Positions 10,691-18,292 of a stretch of 64,000 nucleotides of DNA are shown in pieces (positions within the stretch are counted from its first letter, which is position 1; each line of letters opens with the position of its first letter). The DNA comes from an uncultured Nitrososphaeraceae archaeon. GTDB taxonomy: Archaea; Thermoproteota; Nitrososphaeria; Nitrososphaerales; Nitrososphaeraceae. The notes beneath the pieces are model-generated. The model searched no databases. It worked only from the letters and a program-made list of their open reading frames with translations, and was not told the DNA's origin. Location: assembly GCA_963837175.1 (NCBI GenBank), contig CAWIMJ010000039.1, positions 1-64,000 of the forward strand. Reading direction: 5' to 3'. The position numbers and the translations under genes are program-made.

Positions 10691-11044
10691 ATGTCAAATC
10701 AAAATAATCGTCATAACGTAGAGCACTTTGAAATACCAGCAGATGATGTAAATAGTTTGAAGAATTTTTATTCTTCGTTATTTGCATGGCAATTTGAAGA
10801 AGGCGAAACTGAGGGATATTGGATGATAAAGAATGCAGGAATAAGTGGAGCAGTAACGCAAAAAGAAAATCCTGAACAGATATCAACGCAATTCGTAACT
10901 GTGAAATCAGTCGATGATTATATAGGCAAGGCGCAACAATTAGGTGCAAAAGTAATAAAAAATAAGAAAGAAATATCAGAAGGTTATTTTGCAGTCTTAG
11001 AAGATCCTCAGAAAAATACATTTGGAATATGGCAAAGCAAATAG
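10691..11044 (+). CDS. VOC/glyoxalase-family protein
   Basis: VEHFEIPADD, FYSSLFAWQF, LEDPQKNTFGIW. Confidence 0.9.
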   Translation: MSNQNNRHNVEHFEIPADDVNSLKNFYSSLFAWQFEEGETEGYWMIKNAGISGAVTQKENPEQISTQFVTVKSVDDYIGKAQQLGAKVIKNKKEISEGYFAVLEDPQKNTFGIWQSK

Positions 11045-11225
11045 CATAAAAAGTAGATTATATCTTATTTCTATTATTTTTTCTTAATAGTATTTTTTGA
11101 TTAGTTTTATGAGTCTCGATATCTTTATACAAGTAAAGTCAATAATAATAGAGTTAGCACTATAATGATTTGTTGGCATTATTTAAATAGGAGAGGAACA
11201 TTGATAGTAATGTAGTCGAAATAAA

Positions 11226-11558
11226 TTGGCAAAATCGGTTATGTTTAATTTGGAGTTAGATCTAGCAGAAAGTTATATCTATGGTCATGCTGTTACAGAT
11301 AATGATAAATTATATAAGATAAATATACAGGTTGGAAACCAATCTCTAATTTTTCCTGAAGATTTTGAAATAGATGCAAATCAAGCTTTGATATCATTTG
11401 ATATTGGAGAAGAAAAGAAAATTGTATTAAATAGCAGCATCACAAAAGGCAACACAGATATGATTGAGTTTTACATTAATGATGATAAGACCATGCAAAA
11501 TTTAGCAAATCATCTACCGGTATCTATGACAATAGTAATGGATGGCCATCAAAAATAA
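11226..11558 (+). CDS. hypothetical protein
   Basis: 110 aa ORF co-oriented in cluster, GGAG-like element upstream. Confidence 0.65.
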   Translation: MAKSVMFNLELDLAESYIYGHAVTDNDKLYKINIQVGNQSLIFPEDFEIDANQALISFDIGEEKKIVLNSSITKGNTDMIEFYINDDKTMQNLANHLPVSMTIVMDGHQK

Positions 11559-11594
11559 TAAAAAAATTATAACAGTAAGTGAATAATAATAACA

Positions 11595-12998
11595 ATGCAA
11601 AATCAAAATATCTTAAACCATATGGTTGTTCCTGATTCAAAAGCTAGCAGTTTAAGAATTCTGGTTACAGGTGCAAGTGGCTTTATTGGAAGCCGTGTAG
11701 TACATAGACTATCTTTATCACCATCGTCCTCAGATAATCAAGAGATAATATGCATGACACGAAATGTTGAGTCATTGGAGGGTCGTTTTAATCAAGATGT
11801 CAAAATAGTCAATGCAGATGTCATTGACTATCAACAACTTGTAAAAGCAATGTCTGGAGTAGACGTTACATTTTATCTAATACATTCAATGGAAGGTTCT
11901 TCTAAAGAATGGAAGAAATTTGCAGAAAGGGACCGAGTTTCTGCAGAAAATTTTGCAAGAGCGGCCACAGAATGTGGAGTTAAGAGAATCATCTACCTTG
12001 GCGGTCTGAGTCATGTGGATGATGATAATGAGCTTTCAGAACATTTAAAGAGCAGAAAACAAGTAGGCGAAATATTAAAAACATCTGGTGCAAAAGTGAC
12101 AATATTCCGAGCAGCTGTTATTTTAGGACAAGGAGGAGGTTCTTTTCAAATGTTACAGTATCTTGTAGAGAGGCTTCCTATGATGGTGTGTCCAAAATGG
12201 GTGCTGACAAAGTCACAACCAATATCTGTAGACGATGTGGTTACTTATTTAGTTAAATCTCTGGATGTAGAAGAAACAGAAGGAAGAACATTTGAGATTG
12301 GAGGACCAGACGTACTTACATATGTAGATATGATGAGACGTTATGCAAAAATGGTAAATAGGTCAATAAAAATAATTATAATTCCTTTTCTTACTCCACG
12401 ACTTTCTTCCTACTGGGTTGATCTTATTACGCCTGTTAAAGCATCGTTAGCAAGACCTTTGATAGATAGCCTCAAACATGAGGCAACTGTAAAAGACGAT
12501 TCAATAAAGAATATGATTCCTATTCAACTAAAAAATTTTGAAGAAGCAATAAAATCTGCAAAACAAGAACAAATACAAAGAGAAAAGATTACAAGAACAG
12601 AGCGTACTTCTCGTTCTCTAAACAATAGGATCCTGTTAATGTCGCTGCTTGCAATGATTGCTATAGGATCTACTTACTATATATTTGACGCCAGACCTGA
12701 AATATTTCAAGGTAATTGGCTAATTCTAAGTGGTTGCTGGTACTTTGGAATAGCTTTTTCAATGTATTTTGTATCTAAAGGAGCAAGACTTGGTGCTATG
12801 GTTGCAGGTATAATTGGTTGGGTTACTCTTGCCTTTTGGTTAACTGATAACATATACACTGTTTTAGGTAATTCGATAATTGCTAGCTCACCGGACATGA
12901 TTATGACTATAAGAAACTTTATTGGTGCCATCATTGCCTCAGTAGTTGTAGCAGCATCTCACAATGTATTTCATAAAATAAGAGTTCATAATTTATAG
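11595..12998 (+). CDS. atypical SDR (YbjT-like NAD(P)-binding protein) with C-terminal four-TM domain
   Basis: ILVTGASGFIG, YLIHSM, SEHLKSR, LPMMVCPKWV, LIDSLKHE; hydrophobic last ~120 aa. Confidence 0.85.
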   Translation: MQNQNILNHMVVPDSKASSLRILVTGASGFIGSRVVHRLSLSPSSSDNQEIICMTRNVESLEGRFNQDVKIVNADVIDYQQLVKAMSGVDVTFYLIHSMEGSSKEWKKFAERDRVSAENFARAATECGVKRIIYLGGLSHVDDDNELSEHLKSRKQVGEILKTSGAKVTIFRAAVILGQGGGSFQMLQYLVERLPMMVCPKWVLTKSQPISVDDVVTYLVKSLDVEETEGRTFEIGGPDVLTYVDMMRRYAKMVNRSIKIIIIPFLTPRLSSYWVDLITPVKASLARPLIDSLKHEATVKDDSIKNMIPIQLKNFEEAIKSAKQEQIQREKITRTERTSRSLNNRILLMSLLAMIAIGSTYYIFDARPEIFQGNWLILSGCWYFGIAFSMYFVSKGARLGAMVAGIIGWVTLAFWLTDNIYTVLGNSIIASSPDMIMTIRNFIGAIIASVVVAASHNVFHKIRVHNL

Positions 12999-13048
12999 TT
13001 AGGCACTATAAAGAAAATTAGCCACTTGTTTTTATATTACTAATACAA

Positions 13049-13630
13049 ATGCATGTCATGGAATGGCAAAAAACCTCAAAATTATTTATACTGTATTGCT
13101 CACTAGCAGGATTTATTTCAGCTTGGGCAATCTCTGGTCTACTTGTAACAGTGGATCTTATATCGGGAAGTCCACCAGGTACGTTCTTTGCTGTAATTGG
13201 CATTTCTCTAGGATTTACTGATACTACAACCGCTCAATACATAGGGTTTGCACTACATCTATTAACAGGACTCGCTGCAGGAAATATATTTGGACAACTC
13301 GCGCTATTTTGGCGAAAAATTGCACCATATAACGCAAGATACGGCGTGCCGAGAGGAATGATCGTTGGTATAGCTTTATGGCTCGTGTTGTTCGTACCAC
13401 TTGCAACCTTTGCGATACAGCCAAGGCTTGATTCCTTTGCATTCTCAGCACCAAATCAATATATCTATAACATAGCTTTACACTTTCAGGGATTATATCC
13501 TATTATTGTAGGAGGATCATTTTTTTTCCATCTTATATATGGTGCGATGACTGGATTTATATCTGGAAGAATGGCAGGATTGGGAGTATTTGCAACGAGA
13601 ATTAAACCCACTACACAACCATCCTCCTAA
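13049..13630 (+). CDS. integral membrane protein
   Basis: Four hydrophobic segments, two carrying His (GFALHLLTG, FFHLIYG). Confidence 0.75.
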   Translation: MHVMEWQKTSKLFILYCSLAGFISAWAISGLLVTVDLISGSPPGTFFAVIGISLGFTDTTTAQYIGFALHLLTGLAAGNIFGQLALFWRKIAPYNARYGVPRGMIVGIALWLVLFVPLATFAIQPRLDSFAFSAPNQYIYNIALHFQGLYPIIVGGSFFFHLIYGAMTGFISGRMAGLGVFATRIKPTTQPSS

Positions 13631-13720
13631 TCATTTCCTTTTTTAGCACTAGATTATGATTTATCACCAATTAATATAATTGGAGATAGTATGGAAGATA
13701 ATTAATAATTCTGGTCAGAA

Positions 13721-14602
13721 ATGGTATATATCAGAAGTAAAAAAGTAAAAGGCATTGATTATGCGTATCTTGTTCAAAGCAGGTGGGATCATAAAAACAA
13801 TACTTCAAAGCAACAGATAATAAAGTATCTTGGAAGAACAACTAATGTAACAATTGAAGATATACCTGAACAATATCGCCATGATCCTAAGATTACTACA
13901 TTTATCTCAGTTTACAGCTCTTCTTCTCCAGACAAAGAAAAACTGCTAGCAAAAATACAAGAGGAAGTATTTTCATTATTATTAGAGTGCAACCTGGGGG
14001 ATCTTTTTAAAATATACAAGAAGTATTCGTCATTATTTGGACTCATAGATTTTTATGATAAGCTACTAAAACCTGTCATGCATAAGATTGGAGAACTGTG
14101 GGAGCAAGGAAAACTTGATGTTGCAACTGAACATGCATGTACTAATACTGCCAGCAGTCTAGTAAAGGCAATAAATGAACAAATTTCTCATTCTAAAGCA
14201 ACTAGATCACAACATAAAATTCTGATATGCACTCCAGATGGAGAATTACACAGTTTAGTCTGCAATATAATAGAATCTCTACTTCTTAACAAAGGATTTA
14301 AAGTATATAATATCTCACCTTCAGTTCCTTCAGAATCAATTATTGGCTATGTAAAGAATATTGAACCTGCTATAATACTAATTTCAGTAACTATTACAGA
14401 CAATGTAAAAACAGTTGAAAGACTAATCAAGGAAATTCGTTTAAAGTTTCATAAAGTACCCATTTTAGTAGGTGGTTCTGGTTTAAATAATAATGATGGG
14501 GTTGATAATGATAATAATTATTATGATATTAAGCGCAGTGTAATGTTGATACCTAAGACATCATTTGGTGAGCTGATAAAATTTATAATCCATATCTCTT
14601 GA
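13721..14602 (+). CDS. cobalamin-binding domain protein (CarH/LitR-like sensor module) with basic N-terminal domain
   Basis: W-x9-EH (WEQGKLDVATEH) in the cap domain and E-x-H (DGELHSL) plus ISVT and ILVGG in the Rossmann domain. Confidence 0.85.
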   Translation: MVYIRSKKVKGIDYAYLVQSRWDHKNNTSKQQIIKYLGRTTNVTIEDIPEQYRHDPKITTFISVYSSSSPDKEKLLAKIQEEVFSLLLECNLGDLFKIYKKYSSLFGLIDFYDKLLKPVMHKIGELWEQGKLDVATEHACTNTASSLVKAINEQISHSKATRSQHKILICTPDGELHSLVCNIIESLLLNKGFKVYNISPSVPSESIIGYVKNIEPAIILISVTITDNVKTVERLIKEIRLKFHKVPILVGGSGLNNNDGVDNDNNYYDIKRSVMLIPKTSFGELIKFIIHIS

Positions 14603-14889
14603 AAAATAAATTGACAACAATGAACCTACCTGATTTTCCAATTATATAAGAAAAAAACTTGCAATAAAAAAGTTATAATATTTCATTTTCTTTTTGTTAA
14701 GTTGCAGTTTTAGATCCTTGAATCATTTTATAATATTACTTGTAGCTCGGAAACTCAAAAAATTGGCGGGCTCAGAAACATCTAGTCCATCCTTCGCCTG
14801 GATTAATATTGTATCAATTGTTAAACTAGTCAATAATTTTATTCATTGTTGGATTTGAGAAAATAAGGAGAATATTTATCAAAAACCAG

Positions 14890-15200
14890 TCTCGTCTGGC
14901 TAGTATAGGGTTTTGAGCAATTGTTATTATATTGGCCTCATAGTCATGGCATTTCCTGTAGGTACTACCATATTTTTGATATATTTAATGGCATTTGCGT
15001 TATAGTTTGATGGTAATGCTATCTCCTTTCTTTGGTGTGGTTCTGGTAGCTTTCATATTAGGAATAGCACTTTTGATAATTGGAATACAGATAATTGTAG
15101 CTGGAATATCATGTGGGCAAAAAGCAATGATACGGCATAGGTTTATGGGATGTTGAATTTATCTAATGTATTAGTAGGAGCTTAATATGTAGGCTGTTAG
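14890..15200 (+). pseudogene. degraded membrane protein, possibly HdeD/DUF308-like
   Basis: Fragments RLASIG.., GLIVMAFPVGTTIFLIYLMAFAL with stops and frameshifts. Confidence 0.35.
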
Positions 15201-15541
15201 CCCACCCTACGAAAGAAAGATAATCATAAGGATAAATTCTAAATCTGTAAAAATATCTCGTTCCGTTTGAAGTGTTGAAATTGTAGCAAGTAGTAAAAAG
15301 TAGTAGAATGTGAGATGCAAGAAAATAATAGAGGATCGTAATATTTTATAATTATATTAATCTGACGAATCAACTTACAAAAATTAGCTAATAAAAGCTA
15401 ATCATATTTTTAAATATCATTATCAGTCAGACTTTTAATAATTTTATTGTATCTGAAGAGCATGGTCGAAAAAAGTAGGATAGTTAACTCTTCAGTCTTT
15501 ATATTAACCGCTGCTTTCCGAAATCGAGGTACTGACTAAAA

Positions 15542-18292
15542 ATGCTAGAAGAATATCATAAAAAAAGAAACTTTACTATGACACCAGAACCAAGAGGAAA
15601 CACAAATCAATCAAAAGAAAATAAAAATAAATTTGTAGTACAAAAGCATGACGCTACACGATTACATTATGACTTTAGACTTGAAGATAAAAAAGAAGGA
15701 GTATTGAAATCTTGGGCTGTACCAAAAGGAATTTCTCTTGACTCTAAAATGAAGAGGCTTGCAGTCATAACAGAAGACCATCCATTAGATTATTTGCTTT
15801 TTGAAGGGGTTATTCCAGAAGGAAGCTATGGAGCAGGGACTGTAATCGTATGGGATACTGGAACGTATACATCGGAAGGAGAAATCTCGGAGCAATTTGA
15901 TAATGGTAAGATTACTTTTACCTTATTTGGTCGGAAATTAAGAGGGAGGTTTTCTCTAGTCAGAACTTCAAAAGAAAAGCAATGGCTTTTAATAAAATCA
16001 AGTGATGAGTTTGCATCTAATGAAGATTTGACTATTACAAGACCTGAATCTGTTTTAAGTGGAAGGATAAATGAAGATTTAGAAAGATATCATTACAAAA
16101 AGGACAGAAGTTCTTTTGCTAAAGCAGTGAAAATAAGCGAAAAGGTAAGCAATCATAGAAGAAAAAAAGGAGAAGAGGAAAAATATGGTGGTGGTGACGC
16201 CACTGCTACCAGTGATACTGATCAACAAGAAGAGTTCCCTACCAAAATTAAACCAATGTTATCTACGTTGGTTAATGAACCATTTAACAATAAAGATTGG
16301 GTTTTTGAAGTCAAGTGGGACGGTGTCCGCTCCATACTCTTTTTTCACAAGACAAAAGGAATATTGGAAATGCAATCGAGAAATGGTAAATCAATTACTC
16401 ACAGATATCCAGAAATAATAAAGGCATTAAAATCGATATCATCAGCTATAAAGTGCAAAGAATCAGCCATTTTAGACGGTGAGATTGTGGTATCAGATAA
16501 AAAAAATGGCATTCCTAATTTTCAAGATCATCAGAGAAGAATGAATATTAACAATATTAAGGAAATTGAAGTTTTATCTAGACAAATACCAGCCACTTAT
16601 TACTTTTTTGATATTCTTTATCTTGATGGAAAGAACTTGCAGAGCTTACCGTTCTTGGAGAGACGAAAGATTTTATCCGAGATTATTGAAGAGAATAGTA
16701 GAACAAAAATATCTGATTTTATCGAAGAAATAGGTAAGAAAATTTTTGATAAAACGAAGAGTTTGGGCTTAGAAGGGATAGTAGCCAAACATAAATCAAG
16801 CAAATACTTACAAGGAATACGATCTAGAGACTGGCTAAAGATTAAGAATATTAAGACTCAAGACTGTATTATAATAGGCTACACTAAAGGGGAAGGAAAT
16901 AGAGAAAATTACTTTGGCTCACTTCTTCTCGCAGCCTATGATTCAAAGAGTAAATTGCGATTTGTCGGTCATACTGGAAGTGGATTTGACTTTGATCAAC
17001 TTGGGAAAATATATGAAATGCTTCAAAAAACGAAGGTGGAAAAATGCCAAATTAGCTATGTACCATATACGAACCGAGATCCCGTCTGGATTAAACCAGA
17101 GCTTGTTGCAGAAATAAAGTTTAGCAACTGGACTGGTGAAAAAATTATGAGGGCTCCCATATTTCTTAGATTTAGAGAAGACAAAATACCTAAAGACTGC
17201 ATAATAGGAGAAGAAATAGAAAAACATGTAGAAGAGATCATAAAACAACAAGAAGGAATAGGGAAGCATGATAATTTGGACTCAACTTCTTCTTTCTCCT
17301 CCTCTCTCTCTTTCTCAAACCTCGATAAAGTATTCTGGGATAAAGCCAGAAATCAGCCACAACTTGCAAAAAAAGACTTGATAGAATACTATGACAAAAT
17401 TAGTTCTTATATTCTTCCTTATCTCAAAGATAGGCCGTTATCATTAAGTAGATATCCTGATGGAATTAAAGGAAAGTCATTTTATCATAAAAATTGGAAT
17501 CAAGAAAAACCAGCATTTGTTCAGGCTGTAAAAGTTTATTCCGAATCAAGAGAAGATAATATAATCAATTATCTTGTATGTAATAATAAAGAGACTCTAC
17601 TATGGCTGGCGAACTTAGGTTGTATCGAGATACACCCATGGTATAGTAGAGTTAATGATTTTAACTCATGTAATGAAAAAGATGATATTTTATATGAAGA
17701 AAAATGTGGCTTGAATTTTCCTGATTTTATAATCTTTGATTTGGATCCTTATATTTATTCAGGAGTAGAAAATAAAGTCCAAGAACCTGAATATAATTTA
17801 AAAGCATTTAAAGCAACAGTTGATGTGGCTTATAATCTAAAAGAATTATTTGATGAATTAAAGATTGAGTCTTATGTAAAAACATCAGGAAAAACTGGCT
17901 TGCATATTTTTGTTCCTGTGGCTACCTTCTATACTTACGAACAAACTAGGCGCTTTGCAGAAATCATAGGTAAAATTCTGAAAAGAAGACACCCACAAAA
18001 AATTACAATGGAATGGGATACTACTAAAAGGAAAGGAAAGGTATTCTTTGACCATAATCAGAATGCTAGGGGAAAAACAATAGCATCAATTTTTTCAGCA
18101 AGACCGTCTAGTTTAGCTACTGTATCTATGCCCGCCAGATGGGAAGATCTGTCAAGCATACTTCCAACAGATTTTACTATGATAAATGTTCCTCACATTG
18201 TCAAAAAGTCAGTAAATCCATGGCTAGACATACTAGAAAGGAAACAAGACATAAATAAAATTCTTGAAAATGTTTCAGAGATCTTTGTATAA
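15542..18292 (+). CDS. ligD: DNA ligase D (phosphoesterase-ligase-polymerase fusion)
   Basis: PE: QKHDATRLHYDFRLE, SWAVPKG; LIG: EVKWDGVR, LDGEIV, EGIVAK, WLKIK; POL: FDLDP, KTSGKTGLH, FDHNQN. Confidence 0.95.
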   Translation: MLEEYHKKRNFTMTPEPRGNTNQSKENKNKFVVQKHDATRLHYDFRLEDKKEGVLKSWAVPKGISLDSKMKRLAVITEDHPLDYLLFEGVIPEGSYGAGTVIVWDTGTYTSEGEISEQFDNGKITFTLFGRKLRGRFSLVRTSKEKQWLLIKSSDEFASNEDLTITRPESVLSGRINEDLERYHYKKDRSSFAKAVKISEKVSNHRRKKGEEEKYGGGDATATSDTDQQEEFPTKIKPMLSTLVNEPFNNKDWVFEVKWDGVRSILFFHKTKGILEMQSRNGKSITHRYPEIIKALKSISSAIKCKESAILDGEIVVSDKKNGIPNFQDHQRRMNINNIKEIEVLSRQIPATYYFFDILYLDGKNLQSLPFLERRKILSEIIEENSRTKISDFIEEIGKKIFDKTKSLGLEGIVAKHKSSKYLQGIRSRDWLKIKNIKTQDCIIIGYTKGEGNRENYFGSLLLAAYDSKSKLRFVGHTGSGFDFDQLGKIYEMLQKTKVEKCQISYVPYTNRDPVWIKPELVAEIKFSNWTGEKIMRAPIFLRFREDKIPKDCIIGEEIEKHVEEIIKQQEGIGKHDNLDSTSSFSSSLSFSNLDKVFWDKARNQPQLAKKDLIEYYDKISSYILPYLKDRPLSLSRYPDGIKGKSFYHKNWNQEKPAFVQAVKVYSESREDNIINYLVCNNKETLLWLANLGCIEIHPWYSRVNDFNSCNEKDDILYEEKCGLNFPDFIIFDLDPYIYSGVENKVQEPEYNLKAFKATVDVAYNLKELFDELKIESYVKTSGKTGLHIFVPVATFYTYEQTRRFAEIIGKILKRRHPQKITMEWDTTKRKGKVFFDHNQNARGKTIASIFSARPSSLATVSMPARWEDLSSILPTDFTMINVPHIVKKSVNPWLDILERKQDINKILENVSEIFV

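Follow-up and report, generated by a model that had tools for sequence, protein, structure and literature searches.

A candidate B12-dependent, light-responsive regulator with a beta-sheet head in an ammonia-oxidising archaeon

Introduction

Among the major nitrifiers of soils and oceans are the ammonia-oxidising archaea, which are inhibited by light. Might one of them read light through a B12-binding transcription regulator, and if so, how would such a protein find its promoters? The question is raised by c0, a gene for a protein of 293 amino acids (aa) in a 64,000-nucleotide stretch of DNA (the window: positions 1 to 64,000 of contig CAWIMJ010000039.1, assembly GCA_963837175.1) from an uncultured Nitrososphaeraceae archaeon. 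An original prediction, made from the letters of the sequence, saw in c0 a B12 photosensor module of the bacterial CarH type, fused to an N-terminal domain that is not of the MerR type. We hold with moderate confidence that c0 is an adenosylcobalamin (AdoCbl)-dependent, light-released transcription regulator of a small photo-oxidative-stress regulon. The larger claim, that with c0 the ammonia-oxidising archaea gain a first photoreceptor-transcription factor and the B12 photoreceptors an archaeal branch, with a new DNA-binding fold shared with IS1634 transposases, HNH nucleases and AbiEii proteins, a direct-repeat operator at the B recognition element (BRE) and a photo-oxidative-stress regulon, is advanced tentatively; we judge its chances to be a little under even.

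The gene and its host

The gene and the parts of its product are laid out as follows.

13721..14602, + strand: c0, encoding the 293-aa candidate B12-sensor regulator (an ATG open reading frame, ORF, in the ORF list of the window)
13721..13885, + strand: N-terminal basic three-stranded beta-sheet domain, residues 1-55, the predicted DNA-binding head (from AlphaFold2 strands and conservation)
13928..14194, + strand: four-helix bundle of the cobalamin-binding module, residues 70-158 (AlphaFold2 helices, Pfam B12-binding_2)
14099..14134, + strand: the W127-x9-E137-H138 motif, preceded by G124 (GxxW), read from the translation and invariant in 39/39 orthologues
14216..14599, + strand: Rossmann-type B12-binding domain, residues 166-293, with G174-E-L-H177, V180, S199-x3-P203, S222-x-T224 and G251-G252 (Pfam B12-binding, AlphaFold2, Foldseek)

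The translation reads as the original prediction had described it: residues 127-138 are WEQGKLDVATEH (W-x9-EH), residues 174-177 are GELH, and Val180 stands at the position of the usual Gly of ExHxxG. Pfam places B12-binding_2 at residues 103-150 (E 1.4e-9) and B12-binding at residues 166-254 (E 5.2e-12), both exceeding their cut-offs, and finds no MerR or other helix-turn-helix (HTH) domain, either in the whole protein or in residues 1-80 searched alone. Homologues number more than 1300, most of them matching over the full length, and the nearest named ones belong to Nitrososphaeraceae. Many carry automatic names: "methanogenic corrinoid protein MtbC1" or, from JGI, "MerR family ... light-induced transcriptional regulator". 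The JGI name shows that annotation pipelines already sense the likeness to CarH, yet it wrongly implies a MerR head. Of 121 genomes sampled from the order, 31, spread over five families, encode orthologues with both head and B12 module; the alignment used below holds 39 sequences from several families of the order, with identity down to 36%.

The host genome (3.81 Mb in 58 contigs, 91.5% complete) encodes an archaeal AmoA (E 2.7e-118), and the host had rightly been taken for an ammonia oxidiser. It also encodes a PduO-type adenosyltransferase (3.3e-54) and a methylmalonyl-CoA mutase (1.2e-219), from which it follows that AdoCbl is made in the host. Near-identical copies of the DNA of the c0 region are contained in soil metagenome runs.

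The cobalamin-binding module

What kind of B12 module is this? The AlphaFold2 model of c0, built with the 39 sequences, has a mean predicted local distance difference test score (pLDDT) of 86.8 and consists, beyond the head, of a four-helix bundle at residues 70-158 (helices 70-88, 92-106, 108-128 and 134-158) and a Rossmann fold at 166-292. Among PDB sequences the best matches are the CtMerR B12 domain (8jbs, 1.3e-14) and the photocobilins (8j2w/8j2x, 4e-13); the CarH of T. thermophilus (TtCarH) comes lower, at ~2e-8, with methyltransferase corrinoid proteins and MetH ranking between. A Foldseek search with the model places 8jbs, 8j2w and the TtCarH B12 domains at the top (E ~1e-11, template-modelling score on the target 0.74-0.81). 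By sequence and by fold, then, the best matches are B12 domains of photoreceptors, and the Wx9EH and lower-ligand motifs are conserved, all of which upholds the proposal of a CarH- or photoreceptor-type sensor.

The residues invariant in 39/39 orthologues are G124, W127, E137, H138, N142, H177, P203, G251 and G252. The three residues of Wx9EH, whose conservation the original prediction had made a matter on which it could fail, are among them. The B12 fold does not by itself entail this cap motif: in the MetH-like B12 domain encoded elsewhere in the genome, the positions of W127, E137 and H138 are taken by F, V and L, while DxHxxG is retained. Wx9EH is a feature tied to photoreceptor activity (PMC9304148, PMC11796333).

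Two published motif definitions can be laid over c0. CarH has been defined by Wx9EH together with D/ExHx2G/P-x41-SxT/V-x22-27-GG (PMC9304148, PMC8156234); the lower-ligand motif of c0 reads ExHx2(V)x41SxTx26GG, with E175, H177, S222, T224 and G251-G252 spaced as in that definition and Val180 where it has G or P. The "light signature" of Yu et al. 2024 is composed of GxxW, EH, GxxH and GxxxP (PMC11796333), and c0 has three of these four elements: G124xxW127, E137H138 and G174xxH177. A prediction of the homodimer (two copies of c0, alignment A2) scored 0.01 against a mark of 0.42, and counts neither for nor against oligomerisation.

The N-terminal head

If there is no MerR domain, what takes its place? 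The head is modelled by AlphaFold2 as three long antiparallel strands (residues 2-9, 12-23 and 28-39) with a pLDDT of ~90 in the full-length model, and residues 1-60 folded alone reach 91.7; this, with the absence of any Pfam HTH, agrees with the basic, beta-rich N-terminus that had been read from the sequence. The head ranks among the best-conserved parts of c0 in the 39-sequence alignment: it is strongly basic, with conserved Arg, Lys and aromatic residues, and R5, K7, Y14, L17, V18, W22, Q31, Y36, L37 and G38 are invariant. It belongs to no Pfam family (residues 1-80, best E 0.093). Foldseek against the PDB brings up PC4 and Pur-alpha near E 1-2, which is not significant and leaves the fold unassigned; against viral models (BFVD) the best E is 0.083, also not significant; and residues 1-62, looked up in a protein atlas, scored 0.77 at best, which is below the useful level.

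A profile of the head (60 positions, from 26 heads), searched against 1.84 billion representatives, proved more telling: it matches 1068 proteins at E<=1e-3, 132 of them at E<=1e-10. The partners of the head are known from 30 sequences fetched among the best 150 of the 1068 matches. Along with B12-type proteins of ~280-310 aa, the matches listed include P0230, a protein of 526 aa whose first ~41 residues match the profile at E 8.2e-12 and which carries DDE_Tnp_1; NCBIfam makes it an IS1634-family transposase (NF033559, 215 bits against a cut-off of 100). The suspected likeness of the c0 N-terminus to IS1634 transposases is thereby substantiated. In other matches the head accompanies AbiEii (P0257, a nucleotidyltransferase) or HNH (P0222 and P0238, nucleases).

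Because this small basic module recurs on a transposase and on nucleases, the head of c0 is most simply regarded as a portable DNA-binding module, a reading that is drawn from sequence comparison. As to its origin, domestication from a transposase is one possibility and a shared mobile DNA-binding module is another.

Two further sets of head-bearing proteins should be recorded. In proteins of 155-186 aa (P0213, P0218, P0220, P0225, P0235, P0240, P0246, P0250, P0255, P0260, P0263, P0265 and P0268) a c0-type head is joined to a shared C-terminal domain; the three that were scanned (P0213, P0220 and P0240) fall into no Pfam family, and P0213 into no NCBIfam family. Stand-alone heads of 136 aa, with a charged helical tail and no B12 domain, are encoded at L051:2498-2905 and L052:2461-2868 (both + strand), in genomes that also encode the full-length regulator.

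A candidate operator

Upstream regions were compared across 17 loci, namely 20.9 kb of the window, the locus of a c0 paralogue and 15 orthologous loci of 12.8-19.9 kb, with neighbouring genes grouped as BLASTP clusters of script-called ORFs. In the 200 bp upstream of c0 a pair of direct TTAGCACTA-like 9-mers recurs (consensus T-T-A/G-G-C-A-C/T-T-A), spaced 18-20 bp start to start, mostly 19, with a TATA-like box 1-2 nt after. The window has two such composite sites.

13643..13669, + strand: O-self, two direct 9-mers 18 bp start to start, with a TATA-like box at 13671-13679, 52 nt before the start codon of c0; matrix score 25.2, second best in the genome
11154..11181, + strand: O-cluster, two direct 9-mers 19 bp apart, with a TATA-like box at 11182-11189, 45 nt before ORF 11226; matrix score 26.7, best in the genome, on a site outside the training set

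The exact 9-mer occurs four times in the window, and two of these occurrences head the composite sites. Single 9-mers with one mismatch are not enriched there (26 found, 24 expected); the signal is in the pairing and the placement.

A matrix was made from 24 half-sites, taken from the c0-upstream regions of 11 loci only, one AT-only match in locus L037 being excluded. Scanned over the 3.81-Mb genome, it puts O-cluster first and O-self second, followed by two near-identical sites on other contigs, G000:C27:8699-8727 and G000:C26:8708-8735, each at 24.6. Ten first-order Markov genomes of the same size yielded no site scoring at least 24 (maximum 23.6), against the four real ones. Behind the C27 site come a 66-aa hydrophobic ORF, a 447-aa protein of the NAD-epimerase family and an Fpg/Nei glycosylase. 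(The downstream genes are near-identical on C26, where two shorter ORFs, of 83 and 97 aa, stand in place of the 447-aa one; the duplication may reflect strain variation or assembly redundancy in the genome bin.) Two kinds of lower-scoring hit were discarded: composite hits on contig C21 (G000:C21:7412-7750), which belong to an 18-bp tandem repeat inside the ORF of a 723-aa repeat protein and constitute a false-positive class, and TTAGCGCTA pairs on contigs C57 and C22, with no ORF of at least 90 aa nearby on the strand of the site.

The sites also follow c0 across genomes of the order. Twenty-three sites scoring at least 19 are found in 15/17 of the loci, each of ~20 kb, and none in L037 or the paralogue locus L050; 21 are intergenic, and the other two fall inside ORF calls, one of 75 aa and the other an over-long call of c0. 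They precede c0, the neighbouring families c1, c2, c3 and c4, genes for DUF6789 proteins and a flavoprotein gene, most commonly 29-34 nt from the start codon. A strict IUPAC form of the operator has 44 matches in the 121 genomes, against 6 for a reversed control. It is present in 23/31 genomes with c0 and in 6/90 without, although the genomes are related and these counts are not independent. One of the six c0-less genomes with a match, G084, holds a frameshifted relic of c0. Within 3 kb of c0 or the relic lie 25 of the 44 strict matches, and ten of the genomes concerned were unseen when the pattern was written. The relic itself (locus L053, G084:C1:1497500-1503000) is flanked by two strict matches, G084:C1:1500423-1500450 and 1502815-1502841.

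The upstream regions of ORFs 10189, 11226 and 13049 had been proposed as places to look for binding; the suggestion holds for 11226, whereas 10189 and 13049 carry no candidate operator, and the window's other site is in c0's own promoter. Among the literature occurrences of the 9-mer that were listed, none concerns archaea or the candidate operator, and the candidate operator before c0 and before the c3-c1-c4 cluster is new here.

A second copy of c0 is encoded in the same genome (G000:C7:20408-21172, - strand; L002/L050). Its 283-aa product is 53% identical to c0 and keeps the head, Wx9EH and ExHxxG; no TTAGCACTA-type site precedes it, and the c0 homologue at L037, in another genome, is likewise siteless. 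The two may form a subfamily with another DNA specificity.

Neighbours and candidate targets

The cluster behind O-cluster leads up to c0 on the same strand.

11226..11558, + strand: c3, 110 aa, of no Pfam family, the first gene behind O-cluster; homologues beside c0 in 4/17 loci
11595..12998, + strand: c1, a 467-aa NmrA-like/NAD(P)-binding protein with a hydrophobic C-terminal region (Pfam NmrA 2.5e-14, NAD_binding_10 4.3e-14)
13049..13630, + strand: c4, a 193-aa hydrophobic protein of no Pfam family; homologues beside c0 in 4/17 loci

The c1 family (447-485 aa) is the commonest neighbour of c0, in 9/17 loci: directly upstream on the same strand in six, divergent in two, and nearby in one. 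In three of the six same-strand loci c4 lies between the two genes or just upstream. The c4 family (190-205 aa) and the c3 family (~110 aa) are represented in four loci each; c2 (~300 aa, with a hydrophobic, signal-peptide-like N-terminus and no Pfam family) in five; DUF6789 membrane proteins in four; and a Pyr_redox_2 flavoprotein in two.

Pieces of soil metatranscriptome contigs from four runs align at 95-100% identity over parts of c3, c1, c4 and c0 (region 11000-14700), and one contig, X18 (348 nt, 13463 to 13810), crosses the c4-c0 spacer. This is a hint that the c3-c1-c4-c0 cluster is expressed in soil: the libraries may contain DNA, the contigs show neither ends nor levels, and the uncovered intervals 11000-11247, 13976-14223 and 14472-14700 carry no meaning.

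Downstream of c0, by 940 bp, lies a complete three-domain LigD (15542-18292, + strand; 3'-phosphoesterase, ATP ligase and primase-polymerase by Pfam). It was rejected as a target: the interval 14603-15541 is free of 9-mers, even with one mismatch allowed, and only in this window does LigD stand near c0. The same 940 bp hold only short ORFs of 53-54 aa.

A proposed mechanism, and its rivals

How might these parts work together? In the scheme that we favour, c0 would be a one-component regulator of ammonia-oxidising archaea whose C-terminal module binds AdoCbl as CarH does, with His177 as the lower ligand and Trp127, Glu137 and His138 capping the adenosyl group. In the dark, the cofactor-loaded protein would oligomerise, and the oligomer would set at least two beta heads, facing the same way, on a pair of direct TTAGCACTA-like 9-mers ~19 bp apart; the direct repeats imply a common orientation of the heads, like that in the head-to-tail assembly of CarH (PMC8156234). 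The promoter-proximal 9-mer lies at the BRE position, directly upstream of the TATA box, where binding would most likely block the archaeal initiation factors TFB and TBP and repress transcription. Light, from ultraviolet to green, would cleave the Co-C bond, the oligomer would loosen, and the promoters would open. It is the occupation of the BRE place by the proximal 9-mer that leads us to favour dark repression with release in the light. The predicted targets are c0 itself, the adjacent c3-c1-c4 cluster, and the distant operon of the NAD-epimerase-like protein and the Fpg/Nei DNA glycosylase. Domain identities, motif conservation, and the operator with its linkage to c0 are computed; from there we infer which form of cobalamin is bound, that c0 oligomerises and responds to light, that its head binds DNA, and in which direction it regulates.

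A number of observations weigh against this scheme. In the sensor module, Val180 occupies the position of G/P after ExHxx (orthologues have G, A, V or P), and the fourth element of the light signature reads SxxxP in c0 (S199xxxP203; orthologues have S, T, A or G first, and the Pro is invariant), although the Gly of GxxxP makes no obvious contact with AdoCbl in the published description (PMC11796333). The residue after Trp127 is Glu; in TtCarH this place is taken by a His, which forms the bis-His light state (PMC11796333), and light-driven disassembly of c0 may therefore differ or be absent. The NCBIfam equivalog TransRegCarH scores 53.2 bits on c0 against a cut-off of 400, over residues 78-233 only. 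Foldseek of the isolated head finds no significant match to a solved DNA-binding domain (best E in the PDB 0.34). On the side of the DNA, 8/31 genomes with c0 have no strict operator match and 6/90 without c0 have one; the paralogue on contig C7 and the L037 homologue have no site; the link between operator and protein is one of co-occurrence only; and a site just upstream of a TATA box could also fit activation. Finally, no photolyase was found in the 91.5%-complete genome, and the predicted targets have no proven link to light.

Some of these same points would suit a sensor of cobalamin availability, in which cofactor loading switches DNA binding, the CarH-like residues give specificity for the adenosyl form, and light has no physiological role. 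The organism is one of soils, to judge by the metagenome runs that contain its DNA; no photolyase was found; and c0 is without the Trp-adjacent His that stabilises the light state of TtCarH. Against it, no gene for cobalamin synthesis, transport or use is linked to the operator, and what is linked to it instead (oxidoreductases, membrane proteins and a DNA glycosylase for oxidative damage) makes us favour a photo-oxidative-stress response over B12 homeostasis. The tie of Wx9EH to photoreceptor activity (PMC9304148, PMC11796333) also speaks against it, and AdoCbl in the c0 pocket would be photolabile anyway. We consider this explanation unlikely. Somewhat less likely still is a B12-binding co-regulator in the manner of the AerR antirepressor of Rhodobacter, which would not touch DNA: its head would serve as an adaptor between proteins, and some other factor, such as a dedicated TFB or TBP or a separate repressor, would recognise the TTAGCACTA repeats. 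It is true that no known DNA-binding fold resembles the head significantly in structure, that the operator has been assigned by co-occurrence, and that bacterial B12-binding co-regulators without a DNA-binding domain exist (PMC9144470). Why, then, should the head be so strongly basic, with its conserved Arg, Lys and aromatic residues, and be fused elsewhere to enzymes that act on DNA (the IS1634 DDE transposase, an HNH nuclease)? Nor do the 17 loci show a second regulator gene as a conserved neighbour of c0.

Many homologues bear the automatic name "methanogenic corrinoid protein MtbC1"; this, together with NCBIfam hits to pyl_corrinoid, MtbC and MtaC (E 1e-8 to 1e-14), would make of c0 the corrinoid carrier of a methyltransferase system. 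We give this very little credence: the hits are weak and fall far under their cut-offs (48.9 bits against 350, for example; the best is 53 bits against 215-450), no methyltransferase is among the conserved neighbours of c0, the Wx9EH cap is missing from the MetH of the same genome, and neither the head domain nor the promoter motif has a place in such a system.

Significance

The literature search found no paper tying CarH/LitR or B12 photoreceptors to ammonia-oxidising archaea, and none naming a light sensor or a light-controlled gene circuit for them. B12 photoreceptors have been described as broadly distributed across bacterial taxa (PMC8156234); if the proposed reading of c0 is true, its family extends them to archaea and gives molecular access to a light sensitivity that has long been known in archaeal nitrifiers. 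One can also think of c0, on the same condition, as a compact 293-aa green-light switch for archaeal (eukaryote-like) TBP/TFB promoters, of possible interest for optogenetics. The family offers standard biochemistry one concrete protein, two DNA probes and a short list of targets. Apart from light, a small beta-sheet module that has no Pfam family, is probably DNA-binding and is widespread on mobile-element enzymes is now defined.

Comparison with known systems

The nearest system in overall design is CarH, or class I LitR (T. thermophilus CarH, PDB 5C8A/5C8D/5C8E; the CarH proteins of Myxococcus and Bacillus). Common to both are a DNA-binding head (predicted in c0), a linker, and a B12 module of four-helix bundle and Rossmann fold, with the Wx9EH cap motif and a His lower ligand. 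CarH operators are tandem direct repeats that overlap the promoter (PMC8156234), and the candidate operator of c0 is likewise a direct repeat overlapping the core promoter; the likeness extends to a small stress regulon and to probable autoregulation, both predicted for c0. The differences are no less definite: a three-stranded beta-sheet head in place of the MerR winged helix, an archaeal TBP/TFB promoter, and two 9-mers ~19 bp apart where CarH has three or four contiguous 11-mers. In c0, moreover, the Trp is not followed by His, Val stands for G/P after ExHxx, and the score lies far below the NCBIfam cut-off for CarH. By two criteria, the absence of a MerR head and a score far below the equivalog cut-off, c0 is not a member of CarH.

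With the IS1634 transposases (NF033559) c0 has a homologous head in common, corresponding to the first ~41 residues of P0230. Unlike them it has no DDE catalytic domain, and the DNA assigned to it by co-occurrence is a fixed chromosomal operator, not transposon ends. The AerR/PpaA antirepressors of purple bacteria resemble c0 in using a B12-binding module to carry a light or B12 signal to transcription; they are not known to have a DNA-binding head and act through CrtJ/PpsR.

There remain the B12 domain of CtMerR (8JBS/8JBT) and the photocobilins (8J2W/8J2X), light-responsive B12 domains that were found by SignatureFinder (PMC11796333, PMC10979010). c0 is like them in GxxW, EH and GxxH and, as in CtMerR, no His stands next to its Trp; it is unlike them in having SxxxP for GxxxP, and identity is only 17-23%. 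The outputs of that set are a MerR HTH, a bilin-binding globin or GGDEF, and the output of c0 is the beta head. It is to this wider set of light-responsive B12 domains, with its varied output domains, that c0 is closest.

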